Shown here in pieces: positions 4,050 to 60,341 of a DNA stretch of 64,000 bases. Source of the DNA: Candidatus Saccharimonadia bacterium (GTDB lineage: Bacteria > Patescibacteriota > Saccharimonadia > UBA4664 > SCTI01); contig JBKJLI010000003.1 of the NCBI GenBank assembly GCA_046597065.1, forward strand, positions 290,841 through 354,840, given 5' to 3'. Below the pieces are notes generated by a model. The model was not told the origin of the DNA and made no database searches. It saw only the letters and a list, made by a program, of their open reading frames with translations. A program made the position numbers and the translations under genes. The first letter of the stretch is position 1; every line of letters begins with the position of its first letter.

Positions 4050-4076
4050 CCGGCGGGGGCCATAGCGCCCCCGCCG
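4050..4076 (+). terminator. GC-rich hairpin (cggcgggggc / gcccccgccg, 10 bp stem) closing the two-gene cassette
   Basis: Perfect 10 bp inverted repeat read from the sequence. No clear U-tract follows. Confidence 0.4.
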
Positions 4077-7542: not shown

Positions 7543-7562
7543 TAAGTTCGGACCCTAAACCC

Positions 7563-7591
7563 AAACAACCGCCCACAAGGGGCGGTTGTTT
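7563..7591. terminator. Bidirectional intrinsic terminator hairpin (12 bp stem aaacaaccgccc / gggcggttgttt)
   Basis: Perfect 12 bp stem with a 5 nt loop between convergent genes. A T-run follows on the plus strand. Confidence 0.6.
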
Positions 7592-7609
7592 GATAGCGGT
7601 CTCTACTGC

Positions 7610-9529: not shown

Positions 9530-9570
9530 CGGGCCCGGTCCTTCATTGGACCGGGCCCGGAAGTATTTTT
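9530..9570 (+). terminator. Intrinsic terminator: 12 bp stem cgggcccggtcc / ggaccgggcccg followed by tattttt
   Basis: Perfect 12 bp inverted repeat with a 6 nt loop and a T-tract. Confidence 0.6.
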
Positions 9571-15987: not shown

Positions 15988-16015
15988 TTGACACCACAAC
16001 CATTAGCGTTATGAT
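15988..16015 (+). promoter_or_regulatory. Sigma70-like promoter for nrdR: TTGACA, 16 nt spacer, TATGAT. An imperfect palindrome TGTTATacATAACA follows at 16016-16029.
   Basis: Read from sequence. The palindrome immediately downstream of the -10 is a candidate autoregulatory operator. Confidence 0.4.
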
Positions 16016-16053
16016 TGTTATACATAACACTAAATGTGGGGTTTACCGTTCAA

Positions 16054-16515
16054 ATGCGCTGTCCGGATTGTGCTTATATCGACTCTCGAGTTATCGAATC
16101 ACGTGATCTCGAAGAGGGTGGGTCAATTAGACGGCGCCGTCAGTGCTTAAAGTGTAACTTTCGATTTACTACATATGAACGAGTTGAGGCCTCGCGCTTG
16201 GCTGTCATTAAAAAGGATGGCCGCCGCGAGCCATTTAATCGTGCAAAGCTGGCCAGCGGCCTGCACCGAGCAGTTGAAAAGCGGCCGGTAGCTACCGCCA
16301 AAGTCGAGGAGGTTATCGACCTTATAGAGCGTCAATTACGCAGTAGCGGCGACTCAGAGATTGAGGCTTCAAGAATTGGTGAGTTGGTCATGGCCGCTCT
16401 GTTGGAACTCGACGAAGTAGCTTATGTGCGTTTTGCCAGTGTTTACCGCTCATTTACCGATGTGGCGGCCTTTGAAACCGAACTGGCGCGTATAAAATCA
16501 CGCGGCCGGCCATGA
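16054..16515 (+). CDS. nrdR: Transcriptional repressor NrdR
   Basis: MRCPDCAY...CLKCNFRFTT zinc ribbon plus an ATP-cone. Start is set at the internal ATG 16054 rather than the track start 16015. Confidence 0.85.
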   Translation: MRCPDCAYIDSRVIESRDLEEGGSIRRRRQCLKCNFRFTTYERVEASRLAVIKKDGRREPFNRAKLASGLHRAVEKRPVATAKVEEVIDLIERQLRSSGDSEIEASRIGELVMAALLELDEVAYVRFASVYRSFTDVAAFETELARIKSRGRP

Positions 16516-16754
16516 AGTTCTAATAATTGCGGTTTAACACCGGTTCGGGGGCATTAAAACAAACATCAAAATAATGCTTTCCGAATCGGCGCTCAACCGC
16601 CGAGATGGCCTTTGACAACCAGCAGTTAGACACAAAATGCTGCATCAACCGATGGGCTTTCCGAGACGACTTTAGATAATAAAGTTGTGTCGGAAAGTCG
16701 CTAAAAGGCGATGTGGTAACCAAACACTACCGCCGCTAAAGCGGCAGGAGAACC

Positions 16755-19673
16755 ATGACCGACACTCTGGCTGCCGCATCTGTGGCAGCAACACCTGAAC
16801 CCAAGGGCATGACAGTGAAGCGTCGCTTCACCACGCCTGGGGTGCACCCGTTCGACACCGTCGAGTGGGAGTTGCGTGACGCTCGCATTGGACACGGCGA
16901 CAAGGTCGCGTTCGAGCAGAAGGGCGTCGAGTTCCCGACTACCTGGAGCCAGAACTCAACCAACATCGTGGCCCAGAAGTACTTCCGCGGTCAACTGGAC
17001 TCGCCAGCGCGAGAGCGTTCGGTGAAGCAGATGATCTCGCGAGTGGCCAACACCATTACCGAATGGGGCCATGAGCACGGATACTTCGCCACTCAGGAAG
17101 ACGGCGATGCGTTCCAGGACGAGCTGACCTACTTCCTGTTGCACCAGATGGCGGCCTTTAACAGCCCGGTCTGGTTCAATGTCGGGTTTGAAGATCAGCC
17201 GCAGTGCAGCGCCTGCTTCATCCTCAGCGTCGACGACACCCTGGATTCGATTCTGGACTGGAACACCAAGGAAGGTAAGATCTTCCGTGGTGGCTCTGGA
17301 TCGGGCATCAACCTGTCGAACATCCGCGGCTCGGTAGAGCCGTTGAGCAAGGGCGGCACGGCCTCTGGGCCGGTGTCGTTCATGCGCGGGACCGATTCTT
17401 GGGCTGGCACCATCAAGTCCGGCGGCAAGACGCGTCGGGCGGCTAAGATGGTCATCCTCGACATCGATCACCCGGATGTGGGTGAGTTCATCTGGTGCAA
17501 GGCCAAGGAAGAGGACAAGGCCGAGGCCTTGCGCGACGCCGGCTTCGACATGTCGATTGACGGCGAAGGGTTCAAGAGCATCCAGTATCAGAACGCCAAC
17601 AACTCGGTGCGTGTGAGCGATGAGTTCATGCGTGCCGTTGAGGCAGATGAGACATGGGTGCTGAAGGCGCGGGCCGATGGTTTGCCGGTAGGCGAGCCGA
17701 TTCCGGCTCGTGAGCTGATGCGTGACATCGCCAAAGCCGCCTGGCGCTGCGCTGATCCTGGTGTACAGTATGACACCGTGATCAACCAGTGGCACACCTG
17801 CCCGAAGTCTGGGCGCATCAACGCCTCGAACCCCTGCAGCGAGTACATGCATGTCGATAACTCGGCCTGCAACCTCGCCAGCCTCAACCTGATGAAGTTC
17901 CGTCAGCCGGACGGCACGCTGGACGTGGCAGCTTACGAGCATGCCATCGACATCGTGTTCATGGCTCAGGAAATTCTGGTGGGACCGTCGAGCTACCCGA
18001 CCGATGAGATCGGGATCAATGCTCGGGCGTTTCGTCAGCTTGGTATGGGGTACACCAACCTCGGCGCCTACCTGATGGCAGACGGCACTCCGTACGACTC
18101 GGATGCCGCTCGTGGAACGGCAGCGGCCCTTGCGGCGCTGATGACCGGTCGGGCCTATCGCCAGTCAGCCATGATGGCTGATGCAGTCGGCCCGTACGAG
18201 CGCTACCAGCTCAACCACGAGGGTCACATGGGTGTGATGCAGATGCATCGTGATGCGGCCCACGAGCTGCCGGATTCAGGGGTTGCGGATACGGCGTTGC
18301 ATATGGCCGCCCGTAATGCGTGGGACGATGTGGTCGAACTTGGCAACGAGTACGGCTTCCGTAACGCCCAGGCCACGGTGCTCGCGCCGACGGGGACGAT
18401 TTCGTTCCTGATGGACTGCGACACCACAGGTGTTGAGCCGGACTTCTCCTTGGTGAAGTTCAAGGAGCTGGTGGGCGGCGGTCAGATGACCATCGTTAAC
18501 CAGACGATCCCAAGTGCCCTTGCCAATCTTGGGTACACGCCCGAGCAGGTAGAGGCAATCAAGGACTACATCGAGGAGCCGATTCCGGTTGGCGAACCCG
18601 TAGATGGGGTGCAGCTGATGCAGGCTCGTGGCACCATCGTTGGTGCCCCGGGGATCAGCAAAGAGGATCTGCCGGTGTTCGATGTGGCGGTGGGTGAGCG
18701 GGCGATCGCTCCGATGGGTCACATCAAGATGATGGGCGCTGTTCAGCCCTTCATCAGTGGTGCGATCTCGAAGACGGTCAACATGCCGGCTAGCTCGACG
18801 GTCGAAGACATCTACGATGCCTACATGGATTCGTGGAAGCTCGGCGTGAAGGCACTGGCCATCTACCGCGATGGGTCTAAGACGGCCCAGGCGCTGCGCA
18901 CCGATGCGCAGTTGGGCCAGGATGGTGCGGCAGATGAGCCGTTGTTCACACAGGCTCAGGTGGATGAGTTGATCACCAAGGCCAATGGCTCAATCGGCCC
19001 GTTGCGTCGCAAGATGCCTCGGGAGCGACAGTCATTGACCCACAAGTTCACGATCGGTGGACACGAGGGTTACATCACTGCCGGCAAGTACGAGGACGGC
19101 ACGCTGGGTGAGATCTTCCTGACCGACATCGGGAAGGAAGGTTCAACCATGCGAGGGATGATGAACTCCTTCGCCACGATGGTTTCGATCGCGCTCCAGT
19201 ACGGTGTGCCGCTCGAGACTCTGGCAAGGAAGTTCAGCTACGTTCGCTTTGAGCCGGAGGGGATCACACAGAACATCGAGATCCCGTTCGCAAAGAGCAT
19301 GCCCGACTACATCATGCGTTGGTTGGCTTCGCGCTTCCTCGATCCTAGCATTCAGCTGGAATTGGGGATCAGAACGCCGGCCGCCGAAGCATTGAAGGCG
19401 GATCAAGAGGCTGCCACCAGTGTGCTGGAAACAGCTGCACCGGTGGTGAAAACTCCTGCAAAGCCGCCTGGTGCAGAGCTGGGTCCTCAGGGTTCCATTA
19501 CCCACACCGCCGCAGCTGAGGGCAATGGCAACGGAGTTCATCAGCCGGTCATGACACAACACAACGTGCAGTTGGACGCTGGCCCTCCATGCAAAATCTG
19601 TGGAGGCATGACACAGCGTTCGGGAGTCTGCTACGTTTGCTCCCAGTGCGGTGCAACAACCGGTTGCAGTTGA
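16755..19673 (+). CDS. nrdJ: Adenosylcobalamin-dependent (class II) ribonucleoside-diphosphate reductase NrdJ, with C-terminal zinc ribbon
   Basis: 972 aa with class II RNR motifs and a CxxC...CxxC C-terminus. G+C is markedly higher than in flanking genes. SD sequence aggag lies 4 nt upstream. Confidence 0.9.
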   Translation: MTDTLAAASVAATPEPKGMTVKRRFTTPGVHPFDTVEWELRDARIGHGDKVAFEQKGVEFPTTWSQNSTNIVAQKYFRGQLDSPARERSVKQMISRVANTITEWGHEHGYFATQEDGDAFQDELTYFLLHQMAAFNSPVWFNVGFEDQPQCSACFILSVDDTLDSILDWNTKEGKIFRGGSGSGINLSNIRGSVEPLSKGGTASGPVSFMRGTDSWAGTIKSGGKTRRAAKMVILDIDHPDVGEFIWCKAKEEDKAEALRDAGFDMSIDGEGFKSIQYQNANNSVRVSDEFMRAVEADETWVLKARADGLPVGEPIPARELMRDIAKAAWRCADPGVQYDTVINQWHTCPKSGRINASNPCSEYMHVDNSACNLASLNLMKFRQPDGTLDVAAYEHAIDIVFMAQEILVGPSSYPTDEIGINARAFRQLGMGYTNLGAYLMADGTPYDSDAARGTAAALAALMTGRAYRQSAMMADAVGPYERYQLNHEGHMGVMQMHRDAAHELPDSGVADTALHMAARNAWDDVVELGNEYGFRNAQATVLAPTGTISFLMDCDTTGVEPDFSLVKFKELVGGGQMTIVNQTIPSALANLGYTPEQVEAIKDYIEEPIPVGEPVDGVQLMQARGTIVGAPGISKEDLPVFDVAVGERAIAPMGHIKMMGAVQPFISGAISKTVNMPASSTVEDIYDAYMDSWKLGVKALAIYRDGSKTAQALRTDAQLGQDGAADEPLFTQAQVDELITKANGSIGPLRRKMPRERQSLTHKFTIGGHEGYITAGKYEDGTLGEIFLTDIGKEGSTMRGMMNSFATMVSIALQYGVPLETLARKFSYVRFEPEGITQNIEIPFAKSMPDYIMRWLASRFLDPSIQLELGIRTPAAEALKADQEAATSVLETAAPVVKTPAKPPGAELGPQGSITHTAAAEGNGNGVHQPVMTQHNVQLDAGPPCKICGGMTQRSGVCYVCSQCGATTGCS

Positions 19674-19799
19674 TCAATTAACAATCGTGGCCGCAGCGGG
19701 TCACGGGTATTCGTCCCATGGAACCAGGGCGATCCAAGTAAAGAAGAGGTTCCACATGTTTGGCGAGGGTGTGAAACCTATCACACCTCCGTCTGCTAG

Positions 19800-19830
19800 C
19801 GGGCCGGATGCTAACCATGCATCCGGCCCG
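19800..19830 (+). terminator. GC-rich hairpin after nrdJ (12 bp stem cgggccggatgc / gcatccggcccg)
   Basis: Perfect 12 bp inverted repeat with a 7 nt loop, at the 3' edge of the high-G+C island. Confidence 0.5.
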
Positions 19831-19879
19831 TAAAGCTTTCTAGGGCTAAAAATCTTCCCTTTTGCTATAATTGAATCAG

Positions 19880-20143
19880 ATGAAAGTTCATGTTTTATTT
19901 ACCTCAAACACTCCGCTCGACCGCGAGCTTGATCATCTGGACCAGCGCTTAAGTGAGCTGCAAGTTGATCACACTATGGTTGATGCTGATAGCCGAGAAG
20001 GCTCGGCACTTGTTGAGTTGTATGACGCTATGCAGCGCCCGAGCGTTCTCTTAACCACCGACGACGGACAGTTAGCCGAAATGTGGGCAGGTTCGCTGCC
20101 AACACCCGAAGAGCTTTCAGGCCGCTACCACTCAGGATCATGA
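19880..20143 (+). CDS. Hypothetical small protein; possibly a thioredoxin/glutaredoxin-like fold with no cysteines
   Basis: The -10 element TATAAT at 19866-19871 lies 8 nt before the ATG, so the mRNA is likely leaderless. The pattern KVHVLFT...VDAD..GSALVELYD..PSVLL.DG resembles a Grx fold but has no Cys. Confidence 0.4.
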   Translation: MKVHVLFTSNTPLDRELDHLDQRLSELQVDHTMVDADSREGSALVELYDAMQRPSVLLTTDDGQLAEMWAGSLPTPEELSGRYHSGS

Positions 20144-38909: not shown

Positions 38910-40157
38910 ATGCGCTTATCTAAAAACTTCGGCACAACTCTTAAAACTAACAGCGGCGATGGTGACTCATTCAACTACCGCTTGCTTGTTCGTGGTGGAT
39001 TTATTCAGCAAGTTTCGGCTGGAGTATATTCCTATTTGCCACTTGGGCTCAAAGTTATCAATCGCATCTCGCAAGTCGTCCGCGAAGAAATGAACGCTCT
39101 TGGTGCTAGCGAGCTTTCATTGCCATCATTACAACCTAAGGCTCCTTGGCAGCAGACTGGTCGTTGGACCAGCTTTGATGTGCTTTATCGATTACAAGAT
39201 AGCGCCAAACGTGAGCATGCTTTGGGACCGTCTCACGAAGAGGTGATAACTCCATTGGCCCAGAGCTTTATAAATTCTTATAAAGATCTACCAGCCGCTG
39301 CCTACCAAATACAAACCAAGTTTCGCGATGAACTGCGGCCAAAGAGTGGGCTAATGCGGGGCCGTGAGTTTTTAATGAAAGATCTTTACAGCTTTCATGC
39401 CGATGCCGGCGATCTTGATAAGTATTACGAAACGGTAAAAACCGCCTACGCCAAGGTTTATCACCGCTTGGGCCTGGCCGCCAAGCTGACCGAGGCCTCC
39501 GGCGGGGCCTTTACCAAGTACTCGCATGAGTACCAGGTGTTTACCGAGGCCGGCGAGGATACCGTTTATTACTGCGACCATTGTGACTTCGCTCAAAACG
39601 ATGAGATTGCCACAGTTAAAGCTGGCGACGCTTGCCCAAGCTGTAAAAAGGGAGAGATAAAATCGGCAAAAGCTGCCGAAGTCGGCAACATTTTTAAGCT
39701 CGGGGATCGCTTTTCTAAGGCTTTTGAATTTAACTACACCGCTGCCGATGGCAAATCCCACCACCCAGTAATGGGCTGCTACGGCATTGGCATCAGCCGC
39801 ATTATGGGTGTGCTGGTTGAGGTGCATCATGATGAAAATGGGATTGTTTGGCCGGCCGAGGCCGCACCGGCAGACGTTCACATTGTTAGCATTGGCGCAG
39901 ATCGGGACGACTCTGTCGCCAATGCCGCCGACAAGCTTTACGACGACTTAATTAAAAACGGCTACGAGGTCATTTATGACGACCGCGATGCCACCGCCGG
40001 CGCCAAGTTTGCCGATGCCGACTTAATTGGATGCCCGATCCGTCTAACCGTTAGTCCCAAAACTCTGTCCGAGGGTTCGGCCGAGTTGAAGTACCGCCAT
40101 TCCGAAAAAGCTGAGCTGATCACCTTGGCCAAAGCCGCCGACCCCGATAAGCTGTAA
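38910..40157 (+). CDS. proS: Prolyl-tRNA synthetase
   Basis: Class II aaRS motifs. Start is set at ATG 38910, after the upstream stop. Confidence 0.85.
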   Translation: MRLSKNFGTTLKTNSGDGDSFNYRLLVRGGFIQQVSAGVYSYLPLGLKVINRISQVVREEMNALGASELSLPSLQPKAPWQQTGRWTSFDVLYRLQDSAKREHALGPSHEEVITPLAQSFINSYKDLPAAAYQIQTKFRDELRPKSGLMRGREFLMKDLYSFHADAGDLDKYYETVKTAYAKVYHRLGLAAKLTEASGGAFTKYSHEYQVFTEAGEDTVYYCDHCDFAQNDEIATVKAGDACPSCKKGEIKSAKAAEVGNIFKLGDRFSKAFEFNYTAADGKSHHPVMGCYGIGISRIMGVLVEVHHDENGIVWPAEAAPADVHIVSIGADRDDSVANAADKLYDDLIKNGYEVIYDDRDATAGAKFADADLIGCPIRLTVSPKTLSEGSAELKYRHSEKAELITLAKAADPDKL

Positions 40158-40169
40158 GTTTAGTGAATA

Positions 40170-40424
40170 TTGAAGTTGTCCAAGATACCGACCCATTACG
40201 TTGCGGTTGAACGCAAGTTCACTGGGCAAGGGCTAGTAAAGGTATTGATCGACTATGCAGCAAAACTTGCGAAGCAAACGGGTACGCCGGTTCTGCGTCT
40301 GGACACCAATGCAGATGAACCGAGGCTGATGCAGGCCTACGAAAAGACTGGGTTCAAATTATTAAAAATTGTCGAAGAGGATGGCGGCCATCGGGCTGCT
40401 TTATATCAGAAGTCAGTCAGCTAA
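40170..40424 (+). pseudogene. Truncated GNAT N-acetyltransferase remnant (C-terminal half only, 84 aa)
   Basis: Carries GNAT motif A (RKFTGQGLVKVLI). An in-frame stop immediately upstream of the TTG start rules out an N-terminal half. Confidence 0.4.
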
Positions 40425-40497
40425 GTTTGATGTAGCCAATACTTACCTAGCAGGGCATATGAATAGATTTATCAACAATTAGTTACTTTAATCGCGC

Positions 40498-40522
40498 CTT
40501 ATCGTAACTTTTTTACGATAAG
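40498..40522. promoter_or_regulatory. Operator-like inverted repeat CTTATCGTAA-N5-TTACGATAAG (perfect 10 bp arms)
   Basis: Read from sequence. A near-identical copy lies at 60222-60246 upstream of the Fur-family gene. Confidence 0.45.
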
Positions 40523-40665
40523 CGGATTTATCACATTTGGAAGCATGGGTATCGGGGCTTAACTACGCGCTATAAATAAATAGCGACCAAATCTCGGACT
40601 TAACCACTTCATTATCTGTAAATGCCCTGGTAAACTAGGGTATATATTAACGCCAGCGAGTAATT

Positions 40666-41715
40666 TTGTTCGATCGAATTTTGGGGCAATTTTCCCACGA
40701 CATCGGGATAGATTTAGGTACGGCTAACACCCTGGTATACGTTCGCGGACAAGGGATCGTAATTAACGAGCCTAGCGTGGTGGCTATAAACACTAAGACC
40801 AACCAGGTTCTGGCTATTGGAGACGAGGCCAAGCGCATGGTTGGCCGCACACCGGCCAGTATTGTGGCCACTCGACCGTTGGTTGATGGTGTGGTTAGTG
40901 ATTTCGAAGTTACTGAGCAGATGTTACGTTACTTTATCGATAAAGTGCACAAACAGCGATTTAGTCTGCTGGCTCGACCAAGAGTGGTAATCGGAATACC
41001 ATCAGGCGTTACCGAAGTTGAAAAGAGAGCCGTTGAGGATGCTGCTACAAATGCCGGCGCACGACGCACATTCTTAATTGAAGAGCCAATGGCCGCCGCG
41101 ATAGGAAGCCGACTGCCCATACATGAAGCGGCTGGTTCGATGATTGTTGATATAGGCGGCGGTACCACCGAAGTAGCTGTTATAAGTCTGGGTGGAATTG
41201 TGGCGGCTCGAAGTATAAGAATCGCTGGTGATGAGCTAAGCGATGACATCATCCAGTTTGCTCGCGACGAGTTTAATATGACCATCGGTGAGCGTACCGC
41301 CGAGACAATCAAGATAAAAATCGGTTCTGCCTACCCGTTAGAGCAGCTAAAAACTACACCAATGCGCGGACGTGATTTGGTAACCGGCTTGCCTAAGGAG
41401 GTCGAGGTCAACAGCGAACAAATCAGAAAAGCTTTGCAAAAAAGTGTACGTCAAATCGTTGATGCGGTTAAAATCACGATTGAGGAAACTCCACCCGAAC
41501 TGGTGGCCGACATTTTAGAAACCGGAATCGTAATGGCTGGCGGAGGTGCGCTTTTAAAAGGACTAGACTTACTCCTGCATCAACAAACCAAAATGCCGGT
41601 TCACTTGGCTGACGATCCGCTAACGGCGGTGGCTAGAGGTACGGGGTTGGTGCTTGAAGACCTAGACACCCTTAAAGATATTTTGGTGCCAACTCAGTAC
41701 GGCTCACGGGGCTAG
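40666..41715 (+). CDS. mreB: Rod-shape determining protein MreB
   Basis: Actin-fold DIGIDLGTANT. Confidence 0.9.
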   Translation: MFDRILGQFSHDIGIDLGTANTLVYVRGQGIVINEPSVVAINTKTNQVLAIGDEAKRMVGRTPASIVATRPLVDGVVSDFEVTEQMLRYFIDKVHKQRFSLLARPRVVIGIPSGVTEVEKRAVEDAATNAGARRTFLIEEPMAAAIGSRLPIHEAAGSMIVDIGGGTTEVAVISLGGIVAARSIRIAGDELSDDIIQFARDEFNMTIGERTAETIKIKIGSAYPLEQLKTTPMRGRDLVTGLPKEVEVNSEQIRKALQKSVRQIVDAVKITIEETPPELVADILETGIVMAGGGALLKGLDLLLHQQTKMPVHLADDPLTAVARGTGLVLEDLDTLKDILVPTQYGSRG

Positions 41716-41721
41716 GGCACG

Positions 41722-42525
41722 ATGAAAAGACGCAGTATTAACCGGCGCCTGATAGGCTTGCTATCGGCCGCCGCTCTAATTGGAGTTATTGGCGCTGCTG
41801 GCTGGCTGCGACCGTTACAAGGTGCAGCCAGCTGGTTAACGCGTCCACTAACCGGTGTGGTTAGTTCGGCTTCATCTGCCATCGGCAGCTGGTGGACGGT
41901 GGCAAACTCTGTCGGCAGTTTAGCTAGTGATAATCAGCGCTTGCAAGGTAAGGTGGCCTCGCTTCAAGCTCAGCTCAGCCAACAAACCGAACTACGAGCT
42001 CAAAACGACGAGCTACGCAAACAATTAGGTGTTGGAGCGGTTCGACCAGAAAAGCTTATCGCCGCCGAAGTGATTGGGTATCAACCCGATAACTTTCGTC
42101 AGTTCTTAACAATTGGGCGGGGCAGTAATGATGGTCTTAGCGCCGGCATGGCGGTAGTGTCGCAGGGAACCCTGGTGGGCACTTTGCAAGAAGTCACCGC
42201 TACAAGCTCAAAGGTTTTTCTGCTGATCGATCCAACTTTTAGGGTTACGGCGTTAGATCAAGATTCGCCCAATCGGCCTACCGGTACAATTCACGGGCAG
42301 ATCGGTAGTGGCTTGATAATGGACAAAATCGCCCAAAATGAAAGTCTTAAGCCGGGGGATACCATTGTAACTACAGGTACCGGTGCCGAAATTCCAAAGG
42401 GGTTGATTATCGGCCGTATCCAAACCGTTGATAAAAAGGATAACGGCGTGTTTCAGATCGCCCAAGTTACTAGCGACATTGTCTTTAACCGCCTCGAAAT
42501 TGTTTACGTTGTGGCAAGGCAGTAG
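41722..42525 (+). CDS. mreC: MreC
   Basis: TM anchor, a coiled-coil and a beta-rich domain, in the mreBCD position. Confidence 0.8.
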   Translation: MKRRSINRRLIGLLSAAALIGVIGAAGWLRPLQGAASWLTRPLTGVVSSASSAIGSWWTVANSVGSLASDNQRLQGKVASLQAQLSQQTELRAQNDELRKQLGVGAVRPEKLIAAEVIGYQPDNFRQFLTIGRGSNDGLSAGMAVVSQGTLVGTLQEVTATSSKVFLLIDPTFRVTALDQDSPNRPTGTIHGQIGSGLIMDKIAQNESLKPGDTIVTTGTGAEIPKGLIIGRIQTVDKKDNGVFQIAQVTSDIVFNRLEIVYVVARQ

Positions 42526-42533
42526 GTGCCGCA

Positions 42534-43037
42534 ATGTTGATTCCTATTATCGCCAGCCTGTTCGCCGTGCTACTAGAAGTAGCGTGGTTTGGCCATATCC
42601 GGCCGTTTGGTATCATTCCTAATTTAGCCGTCATCATCGTGGCGCTTACTGCACTGTGGTCGCAAGCCACACCTACTCTGGTGGCAGCTATCACCGCCGG
42701 CTTACTTCTAGATAGCGCTAGCGGCACCGATTTTGGTTTGCGCACAGCCTTTTTGGCGGCTTTAGCAGTTTGTACCATCGCTGCTCGTCAATTAGGCTTA
42801 CACGCCGACTCGCTGGTGGCAGCACTGGGTATTGTAGCCATAGCTACGATTTTGTTTGATCTAGCGGTAGTAACCAGCGTGCACAGTGCGGCCATCGACT
42901 GGCATCTGGTAGCCAGCCGCATCGGTATCGAGCTACTACTAAATTTGCCTATAACCGCAACAGCTTGGGTTTTTGGTAGCGCCTGGCGCAATCGTCAGCC
43001 GGTGCTTCCAGACGCGGATCGCGGAAGCTGGTTGTGA
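42534..43037 (+). CDS. mreD: MreD
   Basis: Small polytopic membrane protein in operon position. Confidence 0.6.
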   Translation: MLIPIIASLFAVLLEVAWFGHIRPFGIIPNLAVIIVALTALWSQATPTLVAAITAGLLLDSASGTDFGLRTAFLAALAVCTIAARQLGLHADSLVAALGIVAIATILFDLAVVTSVHSAAIDWHLVASRIGIELLLNLPITATAWVFGSAWRNRQPVLPDADRGSWL

Positions 43038-45076
43038 CCAAAAAAACTACCGGCCAGTTTGGCTACGGCGGTGAAGAGCGGCCGCAAAAGAATCGTGCCA
43101 CCATTAAGCGCGACCAGGGAGGCCACGAGCGTTGGGCCGAGGCCATATTGCCGGCAGACGCCGAGGCCGGTACCATCGAGACTCCTACCAGCCGCCGCCC
43201 TTTGGTAATTTTGGCTTCGTTAGTGATTGTAGCCGCAACAGTATTGGCCGCACAGTTATTCCATTTACAGGTGGTCGATGGCCAACGCAATTTGGGTCTG
43301 GCTGATGGCAATCGATTACGCCAAAAAATTACTCGAGCACCGAGGGGAGTAATTTATGATCGTCATAAACAGGTTCTAGCCGAAAATCTGGCCAGTTTTG
43401 ATTTAACGGTTACAGCTAGCTTGCTGCCCAAAGCCGCTGACCAGCGGGATGCCTTATATAGCCGTGTTGCAACCCTAACCGGTCTTAGCCCGACTGAAAT
43501 TAAATCTAAAGTAGAAGGCGACTGCGCAGCTGCTCAAATTGCCTCAAAGGCAAATGGAAATAAATCGACGTCCATCTGCCTTGATCAACCCCAAGCCAAG
43601 CTAGTCGCCAGTAATCTGCCGAGGCAGCAGGCTCTCGACTTTGACCAACAGTCTGCCAGCGTTCCTGGATTTAGTCTTGATGTTAACCCTATCCGTCAGT
43701 ATGACGACGCCGGCTTGCTGTCCTCTATCTTGGGTTATACCGGGCGGGTTAGCGAAGACGACCTGCTGCGGAATCCAACTTATGGCTCCACCGATTTTAT
43801 TGGTAAACTCGGTATCGAAAAGCAGTACGAGGCACAGTTAAAAGGGCAGAATGGTAGCGAGCAGACCGAGGTTGATGCCAGCGGCCGGCCAATTAAACTG
43901 CTTAGTGCTCGGCCGTCGGTGGCCGGCCAAAATTTGGTTTTGTCACTGGATATGGATTTGCAGCGCAAGCTAGCAGAGGCTCTCCAGAATCAGCTTATAG
44001 CCAGCGGCTCTACCAAGGCCTCTGGGGTCGCCCTTAATCCTAAAACCGGAGAAGTTCTGGCCACTGTTAGCCTGCCCGGTTACGATAACAACCTGTTTGC
44101 CAAGGGCATATCGCAAAATGATTACAATAAGCTGCTTAAAAACCCGGCTCAGCCCCTATTTAATAAAGCTATCGCCGGCGCCTACCCAACTGGATCAATT
44201 ATAAAGCCGTTGATTGGTTCGGCCGCGCTGCAAGAAAAAACTATCAATACCGGCACAACTGTAAACGACACCGGACAGCTAGAGGTGCCCAACCGTTATG
44301 ATCCCAAGGTTAAGTATACTTTTCGTTCATATGAGCCAGGCGGGTTGGGGGTAGTAAATATCACCAAGGCAATCGCGGTTAGTTCAAACGTCTTCTTCTT
44401 TAGCATTGGGGGTGGTTTTGGAGATGTATCTGGCCTAGGGGTTGATCGGTTGGTCAGCTACTACCAAAAGTTTGGTCTAGGTAAAAAAACCGGGATCGAT
44501 ATTGGCGAAGAGACAGCCGGATCGGTACCAACGCCTGCAAGTAAAAAAAAGGCAACCGGCGAGGGCTGGTTTTTGGGTGACACCTTTAATATATCCGTAG
44601 GCCAGGGTGATCTTAGAGCCTCTCCGCTACAGATGGCGGTGGCGATTGCGGCGGTTGCAAATGGTGGCAACGTTATTAAGCCGCATTTTTTGAAAGAAGT
44701 CCAGGATGCTAGTGGGCGCACCGTTGATACCACCAAAACTCAAATTACCCAATCGGCATTTATTTCACCAGAGAATCAACAGATTATCAAAAACGCGATG
44801 CGGCTGGTTGTATCTGCGCCCTATGGAACCGCTTGCTGCAAAATAGAGCAAACCGTTCCAGTAGCGGTGGCGGCCAAAACCGGAACCGCTGAAACTGATC
44901 CCGACGGCAAACGTAAACCCCACGCTTGGTTTGAGGCTTATGCTCCCTATGAAGATCCCCAAATTGTGATCGTGGCTTTAGTCGAAAATTCTGGAGAGGG
45001 CGCCCAGTTTGCGGCACCAGCGGTGCGAGAAACTTTGCAATGGTGTTTTTCTAGGCCGGGTGGTTGTGTGCAGTAG
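43034..45076 (+). CDS. mrdA: Penicillin-binding protein 2 (transpeptidase)
   Basis: TGSIIKP (SxxK) and KTGTA motifs, downstream of mreD. Confidence 0.85.
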   Translation: MTKKTTGQFGYGGEERPQKNRATIKRDQGGHERWAEAILPADAEAGTIETPTSRRPLVILASLVIVAATVLAAQLFHLQVVDGQRNLGLADGNRLRQKITRAPRGVIYDRHKQVLAENLASFDLTVTASLLPKAADQRDALYSRVATLTGLSPTEIKSKVEGDCAAAQIASKANGNKSTSICLDQPQAKLVASNLPRQQALDFDQQSASVPGFSLDVNPIRQYDDAGLLSSILGYTGRVSEDDLLRNPTYGSTDFIGKLGIEKQYEAQLKGQNGSEQTEVDASGRPIKLLSARPSVAGQNLVLSLDMDLQRKLAEALQNQLIASGSTKASGVALNPKTGEVLATVSLPGYDNNLFAKGISQNDYNKLLKNPAQPLFNKAIAGAYPTGSIIKPLIGSAALQEKTINTGTTVNDTGQLEVPNRYDPKVKYTFRSYEPGGLGVVNITKAIAVSSNVFFFSIGGGFGDVSGLGVDRLVSYYQKFGLGKKTGIDIGEETAGSVPTPASKKKATGEGWFLGDTFNISVGQGDLRASPLQMAVAIAAVANGGNVIKPHFLKEVQDASGRTVDTTKTQITQSAFISPENQQIIKNAMRLVVSAPYGTACCKIEQTVPVAVAAKTGTAETDPDGKRKPHAWFEAYAPYEDPQIVIVALVENSGEGAQFAAPAVRETLQWCFSRPGGCVQ

Positions 45077-53397: not shown

Positions 53398-53424
53398 GGG
53401 GGTCGAGCTTTTAGCTCGACCCCC
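53398..53424 (+). terminator. GC-rich hairpin (gggggtcgagc / gctcgaccccc) after the Cys-rich gene
   Basis: Perfect 11 bp inverted repeat with no strong T-tract. Confidence 0.4.
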
Positions 53425-58538: not shown

Positions 58539-59726
58539 ATGCAAGAGCCAACATCAGAGCGGTCGAACCGCCGATCGCCCAAACTACTATTATCTGTAGC
58601 AGCATTACTGCTATTTGGTTTTTTGGTTGGGCAGATGGCTCCTACACTGGTACCAGCCAACTGGAAGGCGGCTAACAATCGCCTAGAATCATCGGATCTT
58701 AATGATCTTTACAGCTTACTGCAGCGTAAGTTTGATGGTGGTGTCGACCATCAGAAAGCTGTCGATGGCGCAAAATCTGGTTTGGTTTCGGGCGCTGGAG
58801 ATCCATACACCGTCTTTTTGGATGCCAAATCAGCCAAAGCCCTTACCGACCAGTTGAGTGGAACTTTATCTGGCATCGGTGCTGAAGTGGGGATAAAGAA
58901 TAACCACTTAACCGTGATTTCGCCAATAAGTGGTTCACCAGCAGAGCGAGCGGGCTTAAAGGCGGGGGATATTATCGCCAAAATTGACGGTAACGATACT
59001 AGCAATTTGCTGTTGGATGAGGCGGTTAGTAAAATTCGTGGCCAAAAGGGCACCGAAGTGACACTAAAAGTTGTGCGTGGAAACACCGACGCCATCGACA
59101 TTAAGGTAACTCGCGACGTCATTACAGTACCGAGCGTTAAATCGAGCCTTAAGACCGGCAATATTGGCTATATCCAGATATCTCAGTTTGGAAACGATAC
59201 TTCAGAAAAGGTGGCTGCTGCTGCCGCTGGGCTTAAAAATCAGGGCGCTGAAAAGATTATTTTAGACCTGCGCAACAACCCGGGAGGGTTCTTAGATAGC
59301 GCCGTTATGGTTTCTAGCCAGTTTATGCGCGAAGGCAAAGTAGTGGTAGAAGAGCGTCGTAATGGTAAAACAACCGAGAAGCTACAAACTCGATCCGGGG
59401 GTAGCTTGATTGGACTGCCGATGGTCGTGTTGATAAACAGCGGCAGTGCTTCGGCCAGCGAGATTGTAGCCGGTGCACTAAAAGATAACGGCGCAGCCAA
59501 ACTGATTGGCGAAAAAAGTTTTGGAAAGGGTAGCGTTCAAGAAGTTATTAACTTAGGCGGTGGCGCACAGCTTAAGGTTACAGTGGCCCACTGGTTTACG
59601 CCTAGCGGTAGGGGAATCGATAAGATTGGTATAACACCGGATATTGAAGTTAAGCAGGATCAGGCCGATTATAACGCCGACCGTGATCCACAGCTGGATC
59701 GTGCGATCCAAGAACTTTCTAAGTAA
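58539..59726 (+). CDS. ctpA: C-terminal processing (S41, tail-specific) protease with PDZ domain
   Basis: PDZ domain plus S41 motifs LDLRNNPGG and the catalytic Ser/Lys region. Confidence 0.85.
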   Translation: MQEPTSERSNRRSPKLLLSVAALLLFGFLVGQMAPTLVPANWKAANNRLESSDLNDLYSLLQRKFDGGVDHQKAVDGAKSGLVSGAGDPYTVFLDAKSAKALTDQLSGTLSGIGAEVGIKNNHLTVISPISGSPAERAGLKAGDIIAKIDGNDTSNLLLDEAVSKIRGQKGTEVTLKVVRGNTDAIDIKVTRDVITVPSVKSSLKTGNIGYIQISQFGNDTSEKVAAAAAGLKNQGAEKIILDLRNNPGGFLDSAVMVSSQFMREGKVVVEERRNGKTTEKLQTRSGGSLIGLPMVVLINSGSASASEIVAGALKDNGAAKLIGEKSFGKGSVQEVINLGGGAQLKVTVAHWFTPSGRGIDKIGITPDIEVKQDQADYNADRDPQLDRAIQELSK

Positions 59727-60183
59727 CGCTCACTAGCTGTGAGCATTTCTGGCAAACTCCGGTGACTAAAATTTGTGAGGATGTGTGTCGGTAACCTCGC
59801 CGGACCGTCAATCTATTAACTGCTGAAATAATAGACTTATCTTGGAAATTACGGACCGACCCGCAATTTTTACAACCGATCACTTGTTCATTTATCTTAA
59901 AAACTTGATTAAGCGATGTATGGACTCTGTCGTTAACTACCATCGATGAAGTGATCCCGGCTTTTTCTAGCGCCTTCAGGTTGGAGTATGTGGTTTTTTG
60001 AGGTATCCCATGGGACAGATGCAACTCCTTGGCTAACTTGGCGCGGTTTTTTTGAACATGTTGGCTCAGCAGCTTAAGAAGCCTTGCTTTAGCGACAGTT
60101 AATCTTAAGCCCCTTGAGTTCAGTACTAGACGTAGAATATCATCCGTTTCATTATGGGCTAGTTGGTTGATGTCTTTTAGCAT
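59719..60183 (-). CDS. Fur-family metalloregulator (Fur/Zur/PerR)
   Basis: Winged-HTH N-terminus, plus CKNCGSV and CQKC metal sites. Confidence 0.8.
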   Translation of the reverse strand: MLKDINQLAHNETDDILRLVLNSRGLRLTVAKARLLKLLSQHVQKNRAKLAKELHLSHGIPQKTTYSNLKALEKAGITSSMVVNDRVHTSLNQVFKINEQVIGCKNCGSVRNFQDKSIISAVNRLTVRRGYRHTSSQILVTGVCQKCSQLVSVT

Positions 60184-60221
60184 ACTATTTGTTTATTAAC
60201 AGAAACTTACGTTAATTGGTC

Positions 60222-60246
60222 CTTACCGTAATAAACTTACGATAAG
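60222..60246. promoter_or_regulatory. Operator-like inverted repeat CTTACCGTAA-N5-TTACGATAAG, 39-63 bp upstream of the Fur-family gene start
   Basis: 10-5-10 palindrome with one mismatch. Its half-sites resemble Zur-box TCGTAA/TTACGA cores. Confidence 0.45.
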
Positions 60247-60341
60247 CGATAACATCAAGATTTAGCACGTACCAATATAGGCGATATAAAAAATGCGCCT
60301 GTATTTTGGGAGAAATTAATTCAGAGCGGGAGGGAAAATTT

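Follow-up and report, generated by a model that had tools for sequence, protein, structure and literature searches.

A predicted four-box operator variant beside a divergent Fur-family gene in a Saccharimonadia genome

The Fur-like gene, the mre operon and a shared palindrome

The stretch of DNA analyzed here (hereafter the window; 64 kb) comes from a genome that its SecA neighbors place within the Saccharimonadia (TM7, Patescibacteria). These ultra-small episymbionts possess very few regulators, and to our knowledge their control of transcription is almost entirely uncharacterized. Positions 59719–60183 on the minus strand encode a divergent Fur-family protein of 154 aa that contains a winged helix and a dimerization domain. 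Its upstream neighbor is rpmA (L27; 60342–60614, minus strand), and no canonical terminator was found between the two genes. The gene encoding the Fur-like protein and ctpA (S41 peptidase, 58539–59726) are convergent and share 8 bp at their 3′ ends (59719–59726), which leaves no space for terminators. The second locus of interest is the mreB-mreC-mreD-pbp2 operon (40666–45076, plus strand), a candidate second target whose mreB gene has a TTG start at 40666. The G+C content was 57% in the 4-kb bin 16001–20000, compared with 48–53% elsewhere in the window.

The two loci share an AT-rich palindrome whose arms contain 30% G+C. Site A, on the plus strand at 40498–40522, lies between an 84-aa GNAT C-terminal fragment (40170–40424) and mreB, and consists of the perfect 10-5-10 palindrome CTTATCGTAA-CTTTT-TTACGATAAG. 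Site B, on the plus strand at 60222–60246, reads CTTACCGTAA-TAAAC-TTACGATAAG and contains one mismatch, C for T at 60226. Since the Fur-family ORF occupies 59719–60183 on the minus strand, the site B palindrome lies 39–63 bp upstream of its ATG. The first-pass annotation had described both palindromes, one perfect between a GNAT remnant and mreB and one with a single mismatch at this distance from the Fur-family start, and the sequence and the ORF coordinates confirmed this description with all positions correct. No such palindrome would be expected by chance. When up to three mismatches were allowed, the pattern matched three times in the window versus 0.00 times in 100 dinucleotide shuffles, and the analytic chance expectation per 64 kb was <1e-5 for up to one mismatch and 0.002 for up to three mismatches. 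Among the perfect hairpins of the window whose arms reach at least 10 bp, site A is also the only AT-rich one. The other five perfect hairpin loci (4051–4076, 7562–7592, 9530–9559, 19800–19830 and 53398–53424; arms of 10–13 bp, compared with 0–2 such hairpins in shuffles) are GC-rich and are probably terminators or structured RNAs of this genome.

The third match, with three mismatches, is at 44107–44131 (CATATCGCAA-AATGA-TTACAATAAG), within pbp2, the terminal gene of the mreBCD-pbp2 operon. With an additional box-like sequence, TTACGATAAC, at 44080–44089, the two arms form a cluster of three box-like 10-mers within 44080–44131. This copy arises from synonymous codons that are specific to this genome (ATA TCG for Ile-Ser), and the homologous pbp2 codons of four relatives differ from the motif by 9–14 mismatches. 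Thus, of three occurrences, two are in the mre operon region and one is at the regulator gene.

We scanned 83.2 kb of the source genome, consisting of the window and the Logan contigs L114 and L115, and found the same two strong copies and one weak copy; the approximately 19 kb beyond the window contained no match with up to four mismatches. This sequence includes a GAF-PAS histidine kinase with a stand-alone receiver (L114 2262–4825) and an mraZ-rsmH-ftsL-ftsI cluster (L114 8363–11392), both to the right of the window and neither associated with a copy of the motif. In 596 Gb of species-representative genomes, a collection that does not include the source genome, TTAYCGTAANNNNNTTACGRTAA gave 32 scattered matches versus about 35 expected by chance. 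Metagenome contigs gave 73 scattered matches to the pattern, none of them in a related context, and viral contigs gave one.

A four-box array at both sites

The similarity between sites A and B is not confined to the palindrome, as it continues for 30 bp leftward on the plus strand, ungapped and in register (21/30 identical). Alignment of the sites in the opposite orientation revealed no similarity outside the palindrome. Using the 10-5-10 geometry of the palindrome to set the register, which was extended leftward and not tuned, each site becomes a 55-bp array of four 10-bp boxes (L1, R1, L2 and R2) and 5-bp spacers, with L2 and R2 corresponding to the palindrome. Array A (40468–40522) contains the weak boxes L1 and R1 at 40468–40492 (TTTATCAACA-ATTAG-TTACTTTAAT), followed by the spacer cgcgc and the strong boxes with their ctttt spacer. 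Array B (60192–60246) contains L1 and R1 at 60192–60216 (TTTATTAACA-GAAAC-TTACGTTAAT), followed by tggtc and the strong boxes separated by taaac. The box consensus sequences are TTTATYAACA (L1), TTACKTTAAT (R1), CTTAYCGTAA (L2) and TTACGATAAG (R2), with a 15-bp period and alternating orientation.

The boxes of arrays A and B are identical at 37 of 40 positions, whereas the spacers are identical at only 3 of 15 (Fisher p = 4e-7). L1 and R1, which the first-pass annotation had not included, are identical at 18 of 20 positions, compared with 3 of 10 in the adjoining spacers (p = 0.0017). Because the identity of the spacers is at the random level, the two arrays are not a recent duplication, and near-identical boxes separated by randomized spacers imply selection for contacts with one sequence-specific factor. 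This pattern indicates selection for the binding of one factor, as opposed to a recent duplication or an RNA hairpin, and we consider it likely that the 55-bp element is an operator. The palindrome had been called operator-like in the first-pass annotation. That reading is strengthened by the AT-rich composition, the retained boxes and the position upstream of a Fur-fold gene, but the palindrome is half of a four-box array and not the complete element; we suggest that it is the high-affinity half of a composite operator.

Several other classes of element were considered. A Rho-independent terminator was rejected because of the low G+C content of the arms and the lack of a T-run on either strand, and a terminator scan called neither palindrome. 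A known RNA family was also rejected, as an Rfam search at E ≤ 1 was empty at both sites. Although box L1 of site A (TTATCAACA) differs from a DnaA box at a single position, an oriC or DnaA-box cluster was rejected since the 12 matches to TTATCCACA-like boxes with up to one mismatch are scattered over the window and the cumulative skew has no turning point. Lastly, the few copies in 83 kb, the spacers that are not kept and the chance-level number of database matches led us to reject a dispersed repeat or mobile element.

The palindromes could instead act as RNA hairpins in read-through transcripts from rpmA into the Fur-like gene and from proS into mreB, where they would provide a processing, stability or attenuation signal. 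The predicted hairpins (−15 kcal/mol, z of about −3) are compatible with this explanation, as is the lack of a detected terminator between rpmA and the Fur-like gene. The site B mismatch would also be a G·U wobble on the transcribed minus strand, although chance alone would make half of all single transitions a wobble on a given strand. Against an RNA element, the stems are identical in sequence and display no covariation, and they lack both a U-tract and an Rfam match. Moreover, the conserved L1 and R1 boxes are not self-complementary and, if the targets are the Fur-like gene and mreB, the two transcripts would carry opposite strands of them; thus, an RNA structure cannot explain their conservation. 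We regard the RNA explanation as very improbable, and propose that the array is recognized by a sequence-specific dimeric DNA-binding protein.

The divergent Fur-family protein and its orthologs

The protein encoded next to array B is a member of the Fur family. It matched the Pfam FUR profile (PF01475) with 34 bits versus a cut-off of 23.1, covering profile positions 2–118 of 121, and a phmmer search of the PDB gave PerR at 1.8e-7 with Fur and Zur weaker. The AF2 model has a pLDDT of 69.5, and its top 50 Foldseek matches in the PDB were all Fur, PerR, Zur or Mur proteins. The winged helix and dimerization domain are both present, as is the structural Zn(Cys)4 site, in which a CxxC...CxxC arrangement (C104/C107/C144/C147) aligns with the PerR cysteines. 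In an alignment with nine relatives, C104, C144 and C147 are invariant and C107 is nearly so.

The regulatory metal site is absent. Compared with B. subtilis PerR (2fe3), H37 is replaced by A33, H91 by N98, H93 by Q100 and D104 by N112, such that only D85 of the five regulatory ligands is kept. The His-rich motif preceding the first CxxC, which is HHHH in most other aligned homologs, reads INEQ, and none of the NCBIfam equivalogs for Fur, Zur and PerR came near its cut-off. Within the 83 kb examined, no metal-homeostasis gene adjoins any of the three sites, and neither a metal transporter nor a zinc-independent ribosomal paralog is next to one. None of the sites is at the promoter of a metal-uptake or metal-sparing gene; one accompanies the regulator gene, one precedes mreB and one is within pbp2. 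The first-pass annotation had predicted a small metalloregulon; with four of five regulatory ligands lost, that label is without support. A classical metal-sensing repressor of the Zur or Fur type would account for the fold, the retained Cys4 site and the Zur-like core of the half-sites, but it fits neither the replaced ligands and HHHH motif nor the gene content around the sites, and both orthologs of the protein also lack HHHH, having HQKQ and NRRQ instead. Such a repressor with a small metalloregulon is thus improbable, and it is unlikely that binding to the array is metal-sensing at all. Because the structural Cys4 site is present and the regulatory site absent, binding is probably not under classical Fe, Zn or Mn control.

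Non-classical members of the Fur family, exemplified by Irr and by apo-Fur regulation, have the Fur fold without a canonical regulatory metal site. Irr, a haem sensor, has no Cys4 site. The protein described here likewise has no canonical regulatory site, but it differs from Irr in that it has kept Cys4 and has no recognizable sensor.

Comparison of the array with known operators revealed both shared and distinct features. The consensus for Zur of the Bacillus group is TAAATCGTAATNATTACGATTTA (PMC2706843, PMC545781). The strong boxes share with this Zur box, and with the 7-1-7 operators of Fur, PerR and Zur, an AT-rich inverted repeat containing the heptamer core ATCGTAA/TTACGAT. Written as heptamers, site A is TCGTAAc-ttt-tTTACGA and site B is CCGTAAt-aaa-cTTACGA. 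Three of the four strong half-sites match the TCGTAAT heptamer at six of seven positions, and the fourth, box L2 of site B (CCGTAAT), matches at five of seven. The half-sites are spaced as 7-3-7 and not 7-1-7, placing two extra base pairs between them, so that the 15-bp core of the family is not present, and the conserved bases reach outward into 10-bp boxes. The earlier description of Zur-type cores with an unusual spacer is refined here: the ATCGTAA core does match that of Bacillus-group Zur, with 7-3-7 in place of 7-1-7 spacing. A site that precedes the gene for the regulator itself, with a Fur-fold protein encoded alongside, is shared with the Bacillus-group Zur systems; unlike in those systems, the targets are not zinc-homeostasis genes and the regulator has no metal-sensing site.

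Binding of multiple Fur-family dimers to extended operators is established (PMC5007448), and the Foldseek matches to our protein include a dimer of dimers of E. coli Zur (PDB 4mtd) and a trimer of dimers of S. coelicolor Zur (7vo0). Like the 19-bp Fur box, which consists of two overlapping 7-1-7 repeats, the array contains more than one palindromic unit and would be compatible with cooperative binding of two dimers. In contrast to the overlapping units of those operators, the units here are adjacent and repeat every 30 bp (25 + 5), and one unit is strong while the other is degenerate. We consider it moderately likely that the Fur-like protein is the binder of the array, and it would probably bind as two neighboring dimers.

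Only two proteins of the same subfamily, P0004 and P0005, were found among approximately 15 billion (E of about 1e-13). Both are encoded on contigs of 1.1–1.5 kb (loci L002 and L003) with the synteny of the window, in which rpmA is followed by the fur-like gene and a convergent ctpA. The three Fur-like proteins are 28–30% identical to one another, and the one pair that was compared directly, P0004 and P0005, aligned without gaps. Nucleotide identity to the window is 73–81% in the flanking rpmA and ctpA sequences of L002 and L003. It reaches background precisely at the two stop codons, such that a block of approximately 630 bp comprising the Fur-like gene and its upstream region (window 59714–60341; L002 218–850; L003 333–1000) has no nucleotide similarity. 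This hyper-divergent regulator/operator cassette is the most unusual by-product of the analysis.

Upstream of the fur-like gene, each ortholog has its own significant inverted repeat, no more than 70 bp from the start, with a sequence that differs from the palindrome in the window. The repeat in L003 is ACTTTGTGGCATTT-N8-AAATGCCACAAAGT (14-8-14), and that in L002 is AGAAAAAGTT-N20-AACTTTTTCT (10-20-10), which is part of a longer imperfect repeat. An upstream palindrome is thus a conserved property of the cassette, with a sequence that changes along with the protein, as autoregulation by the encoded protein predicts. Since the ortholog palindromes differ in geometry, a shared mode of binding does not follow from them. 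The autoregulation proposed in the first-pass annotation is thus plausible, being favored by the array upstream of the regulator's own ATG and by the ortholog repeats and tempered by their differing geometry.

The sequences of relatives were obtained through SecA (71–84% identity). Their syntenic loci, totaling about 100 kb, contained no match to the motif with up to four mismatches and no Fur-like gene; within these loci the ctpA-rpmA slot was visible only in L110, a more distant relative, where it is empty. L109 and L112, which were used for the mreB comparison (the L111 sequence includes neither locus), have no palindrome upstream of mreB.

These comparisons bear on whether the arrays could be operators of another, unlinked DNA-binding protein, with the Fur-like gene being merely one of its targets. 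Adjacency is the sole link between the protein and the site, the spacing breaks the 7-1-7 rule of the family, the regulator has no sensor site and one of the sites is distant from the Fur-like gene, all of which would suit an unlinked binder. It would not account as readily for the Zur-type core of the boxes, for the finding that each ortholog has its own palindrome in the same place, as expected if protein and site co-evolve, or for the joint absence of the motif and of a visible Fur-like gene from the sampled loci of relatives. We consider an unlinked binder unlikely. Should the Fur-like protein prove not to be the binder, what is left is an orphan operator for some other factor.

The Fur-like proteins also resemble a phage protein family, as P0001, P0004 and P0005 matched PHROG 13084, for which no function is annotated, at E values of 1e-13 to 1e-16; for P0001 this match was better than that to Pfam FUR (3.6e-8). 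A phage origin was rejected because there was no tblastn match in 50,697 phage genomes and no IMG/VR locus, and PADLOC returned only weak winged-helix matches. By analogy only, the divergent block is reminiscent of the immunity regions of temperate phages, in which repressor and operators diverge together between conserved flanks. Unlike an immunity region, it has no phage context, and the surrounding genes are housekeeping genes. A speculative extension, to which we attach a low probability, is that a fixed ctpA-rpmA slot of some Saccharimonadia houses a fast-diverging cassette that pairs a sensor-less Fur-fold regulator with its operator, the two co-diversifying in the manner of an immunity region, and that the version in this genome has gained sites at mreBCD-pbp2, binds the 7-3-7 four-box array as a new Fur-family geometry, and responds to a non-metal signal.

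Promoters and candidate targets

Array B spans −9 to −63 relative to the ATG of the regulator, and binding to it should therefore autoregulate the Fur-like gene. Consensus scans for the promoter of this gene gave several weak, mutually exclusive candidates. On the minus strand, box L1 of site B reads TGTTAATAAA and resembles an extended −10 element positioned 9–18 nt before the ATG. A better hexamer, TATATT, is present at 60279–60274; if this is the promoter, the whole of array B is in the 5′ leader. With either candidate, a protein bound to array B would be on or just downstream of the Fur-like promoter.

The arrangement differs at mreB, which is preceded by a conserved extended −10 element, TGgTAAACT (40628–40636, plus strand), 29 nt before the TTG start. 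The corresponding elements of relatives are TGtTAAACT in L109 (1585–1593) and TGgTACACT in L112 (1049–1057), and the distance to the mreB start is 29–30 nt in all three Saccharimonadia. Array A lies 144 bp upstream of mreB and is centered approximately 133 bp upstream of this promoter, and thus classical promoter occlusion of mreB is not indicated. Arrays A and B have the same plus strand orientation but, as the Fur-like gene is read leftward and mreB rightward, array A faces its candidate target the opposite way from array B. Between proS and mreB, no plus-strand terminator was detected. An effect of array A on the mre genes, if any, would come from a distance, via a second promoter, or as a roadblock to proS read-through, and not by covering the mreB core promoter.

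The position of array A raises the possibility that site A is a functionless relic, namely a duplicate of the Fur-like promoter/operator that stayed behind in the variable proS-mreB gap when genes were lost or rearranged. In keeping with a relic, array A has the same plus strand orientation as the array at the Fur-like gene, is remote from the mreB core promoter and lies in a gap whose contents vary among genomes, and its similarity to array B may extend to a GCATA that resembles a start codon. However, decay would have eroded boxes and spacers equally, which is not what the 37/40 and 3/15 identities show; a search for a Fur-like coding remnant beside site A found none, and a third copy of the motif is in the same operon. 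We assign little probability to the relic explanation. The first-pass annotation had raised the possibility that the regulon includes mreBCD-pbp2; the weaker copy inside pbp2 speaks for this and the distance of site A from the mreB promoter against it, so we view a link between the regulator and mreBCD-pbp2 as evenly balanced.

Taken together, we infer the identity of the binder and the effect of binding from the sequence and from adjacency as follows. The array would be a composite four-box operator bound by the adjacent Fur-like protein, which would regulate its own gene and, through the array upstream of mreB and the weaker pbp2 copy, be tied to the mreBCD-pbp2 cell-shape operon; we judge that this combined explanation has about an even chance of being correct. 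The variant Fur-family operator described here is predicted computationally, and comes from a little-studied lineage. If the prediction holds, it would be a case in which the Fur scaffold has been reused for non-metal regulation, with a wider-spaced four-box operator and a link to cell-shape and elongation genes. The divergent regulator-plus-operator block between otherwise similar genomes would also provide natural protein/operator pairs for the study of how Fur-family specificity evolves.

Two further observations concern the region upstream of mreB. The proS-mreB gap is a variable slot (window 40157–40666; L109 655–1624; L112 376–1088) that contains the GNAT C-terminal fragment in the window, two unannotated small ORFs in L109, and in L112 a minus-strand gene for a 177-aa protein with a domain resembling the C-terminal domain of the RNA polymerase alpha subunit. 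In addition, the sequence TGnTA(A/C)ACT followed by AG, found upstream of mreB in all three Saccharimonadia, could serve as a promoter model for this lineage.
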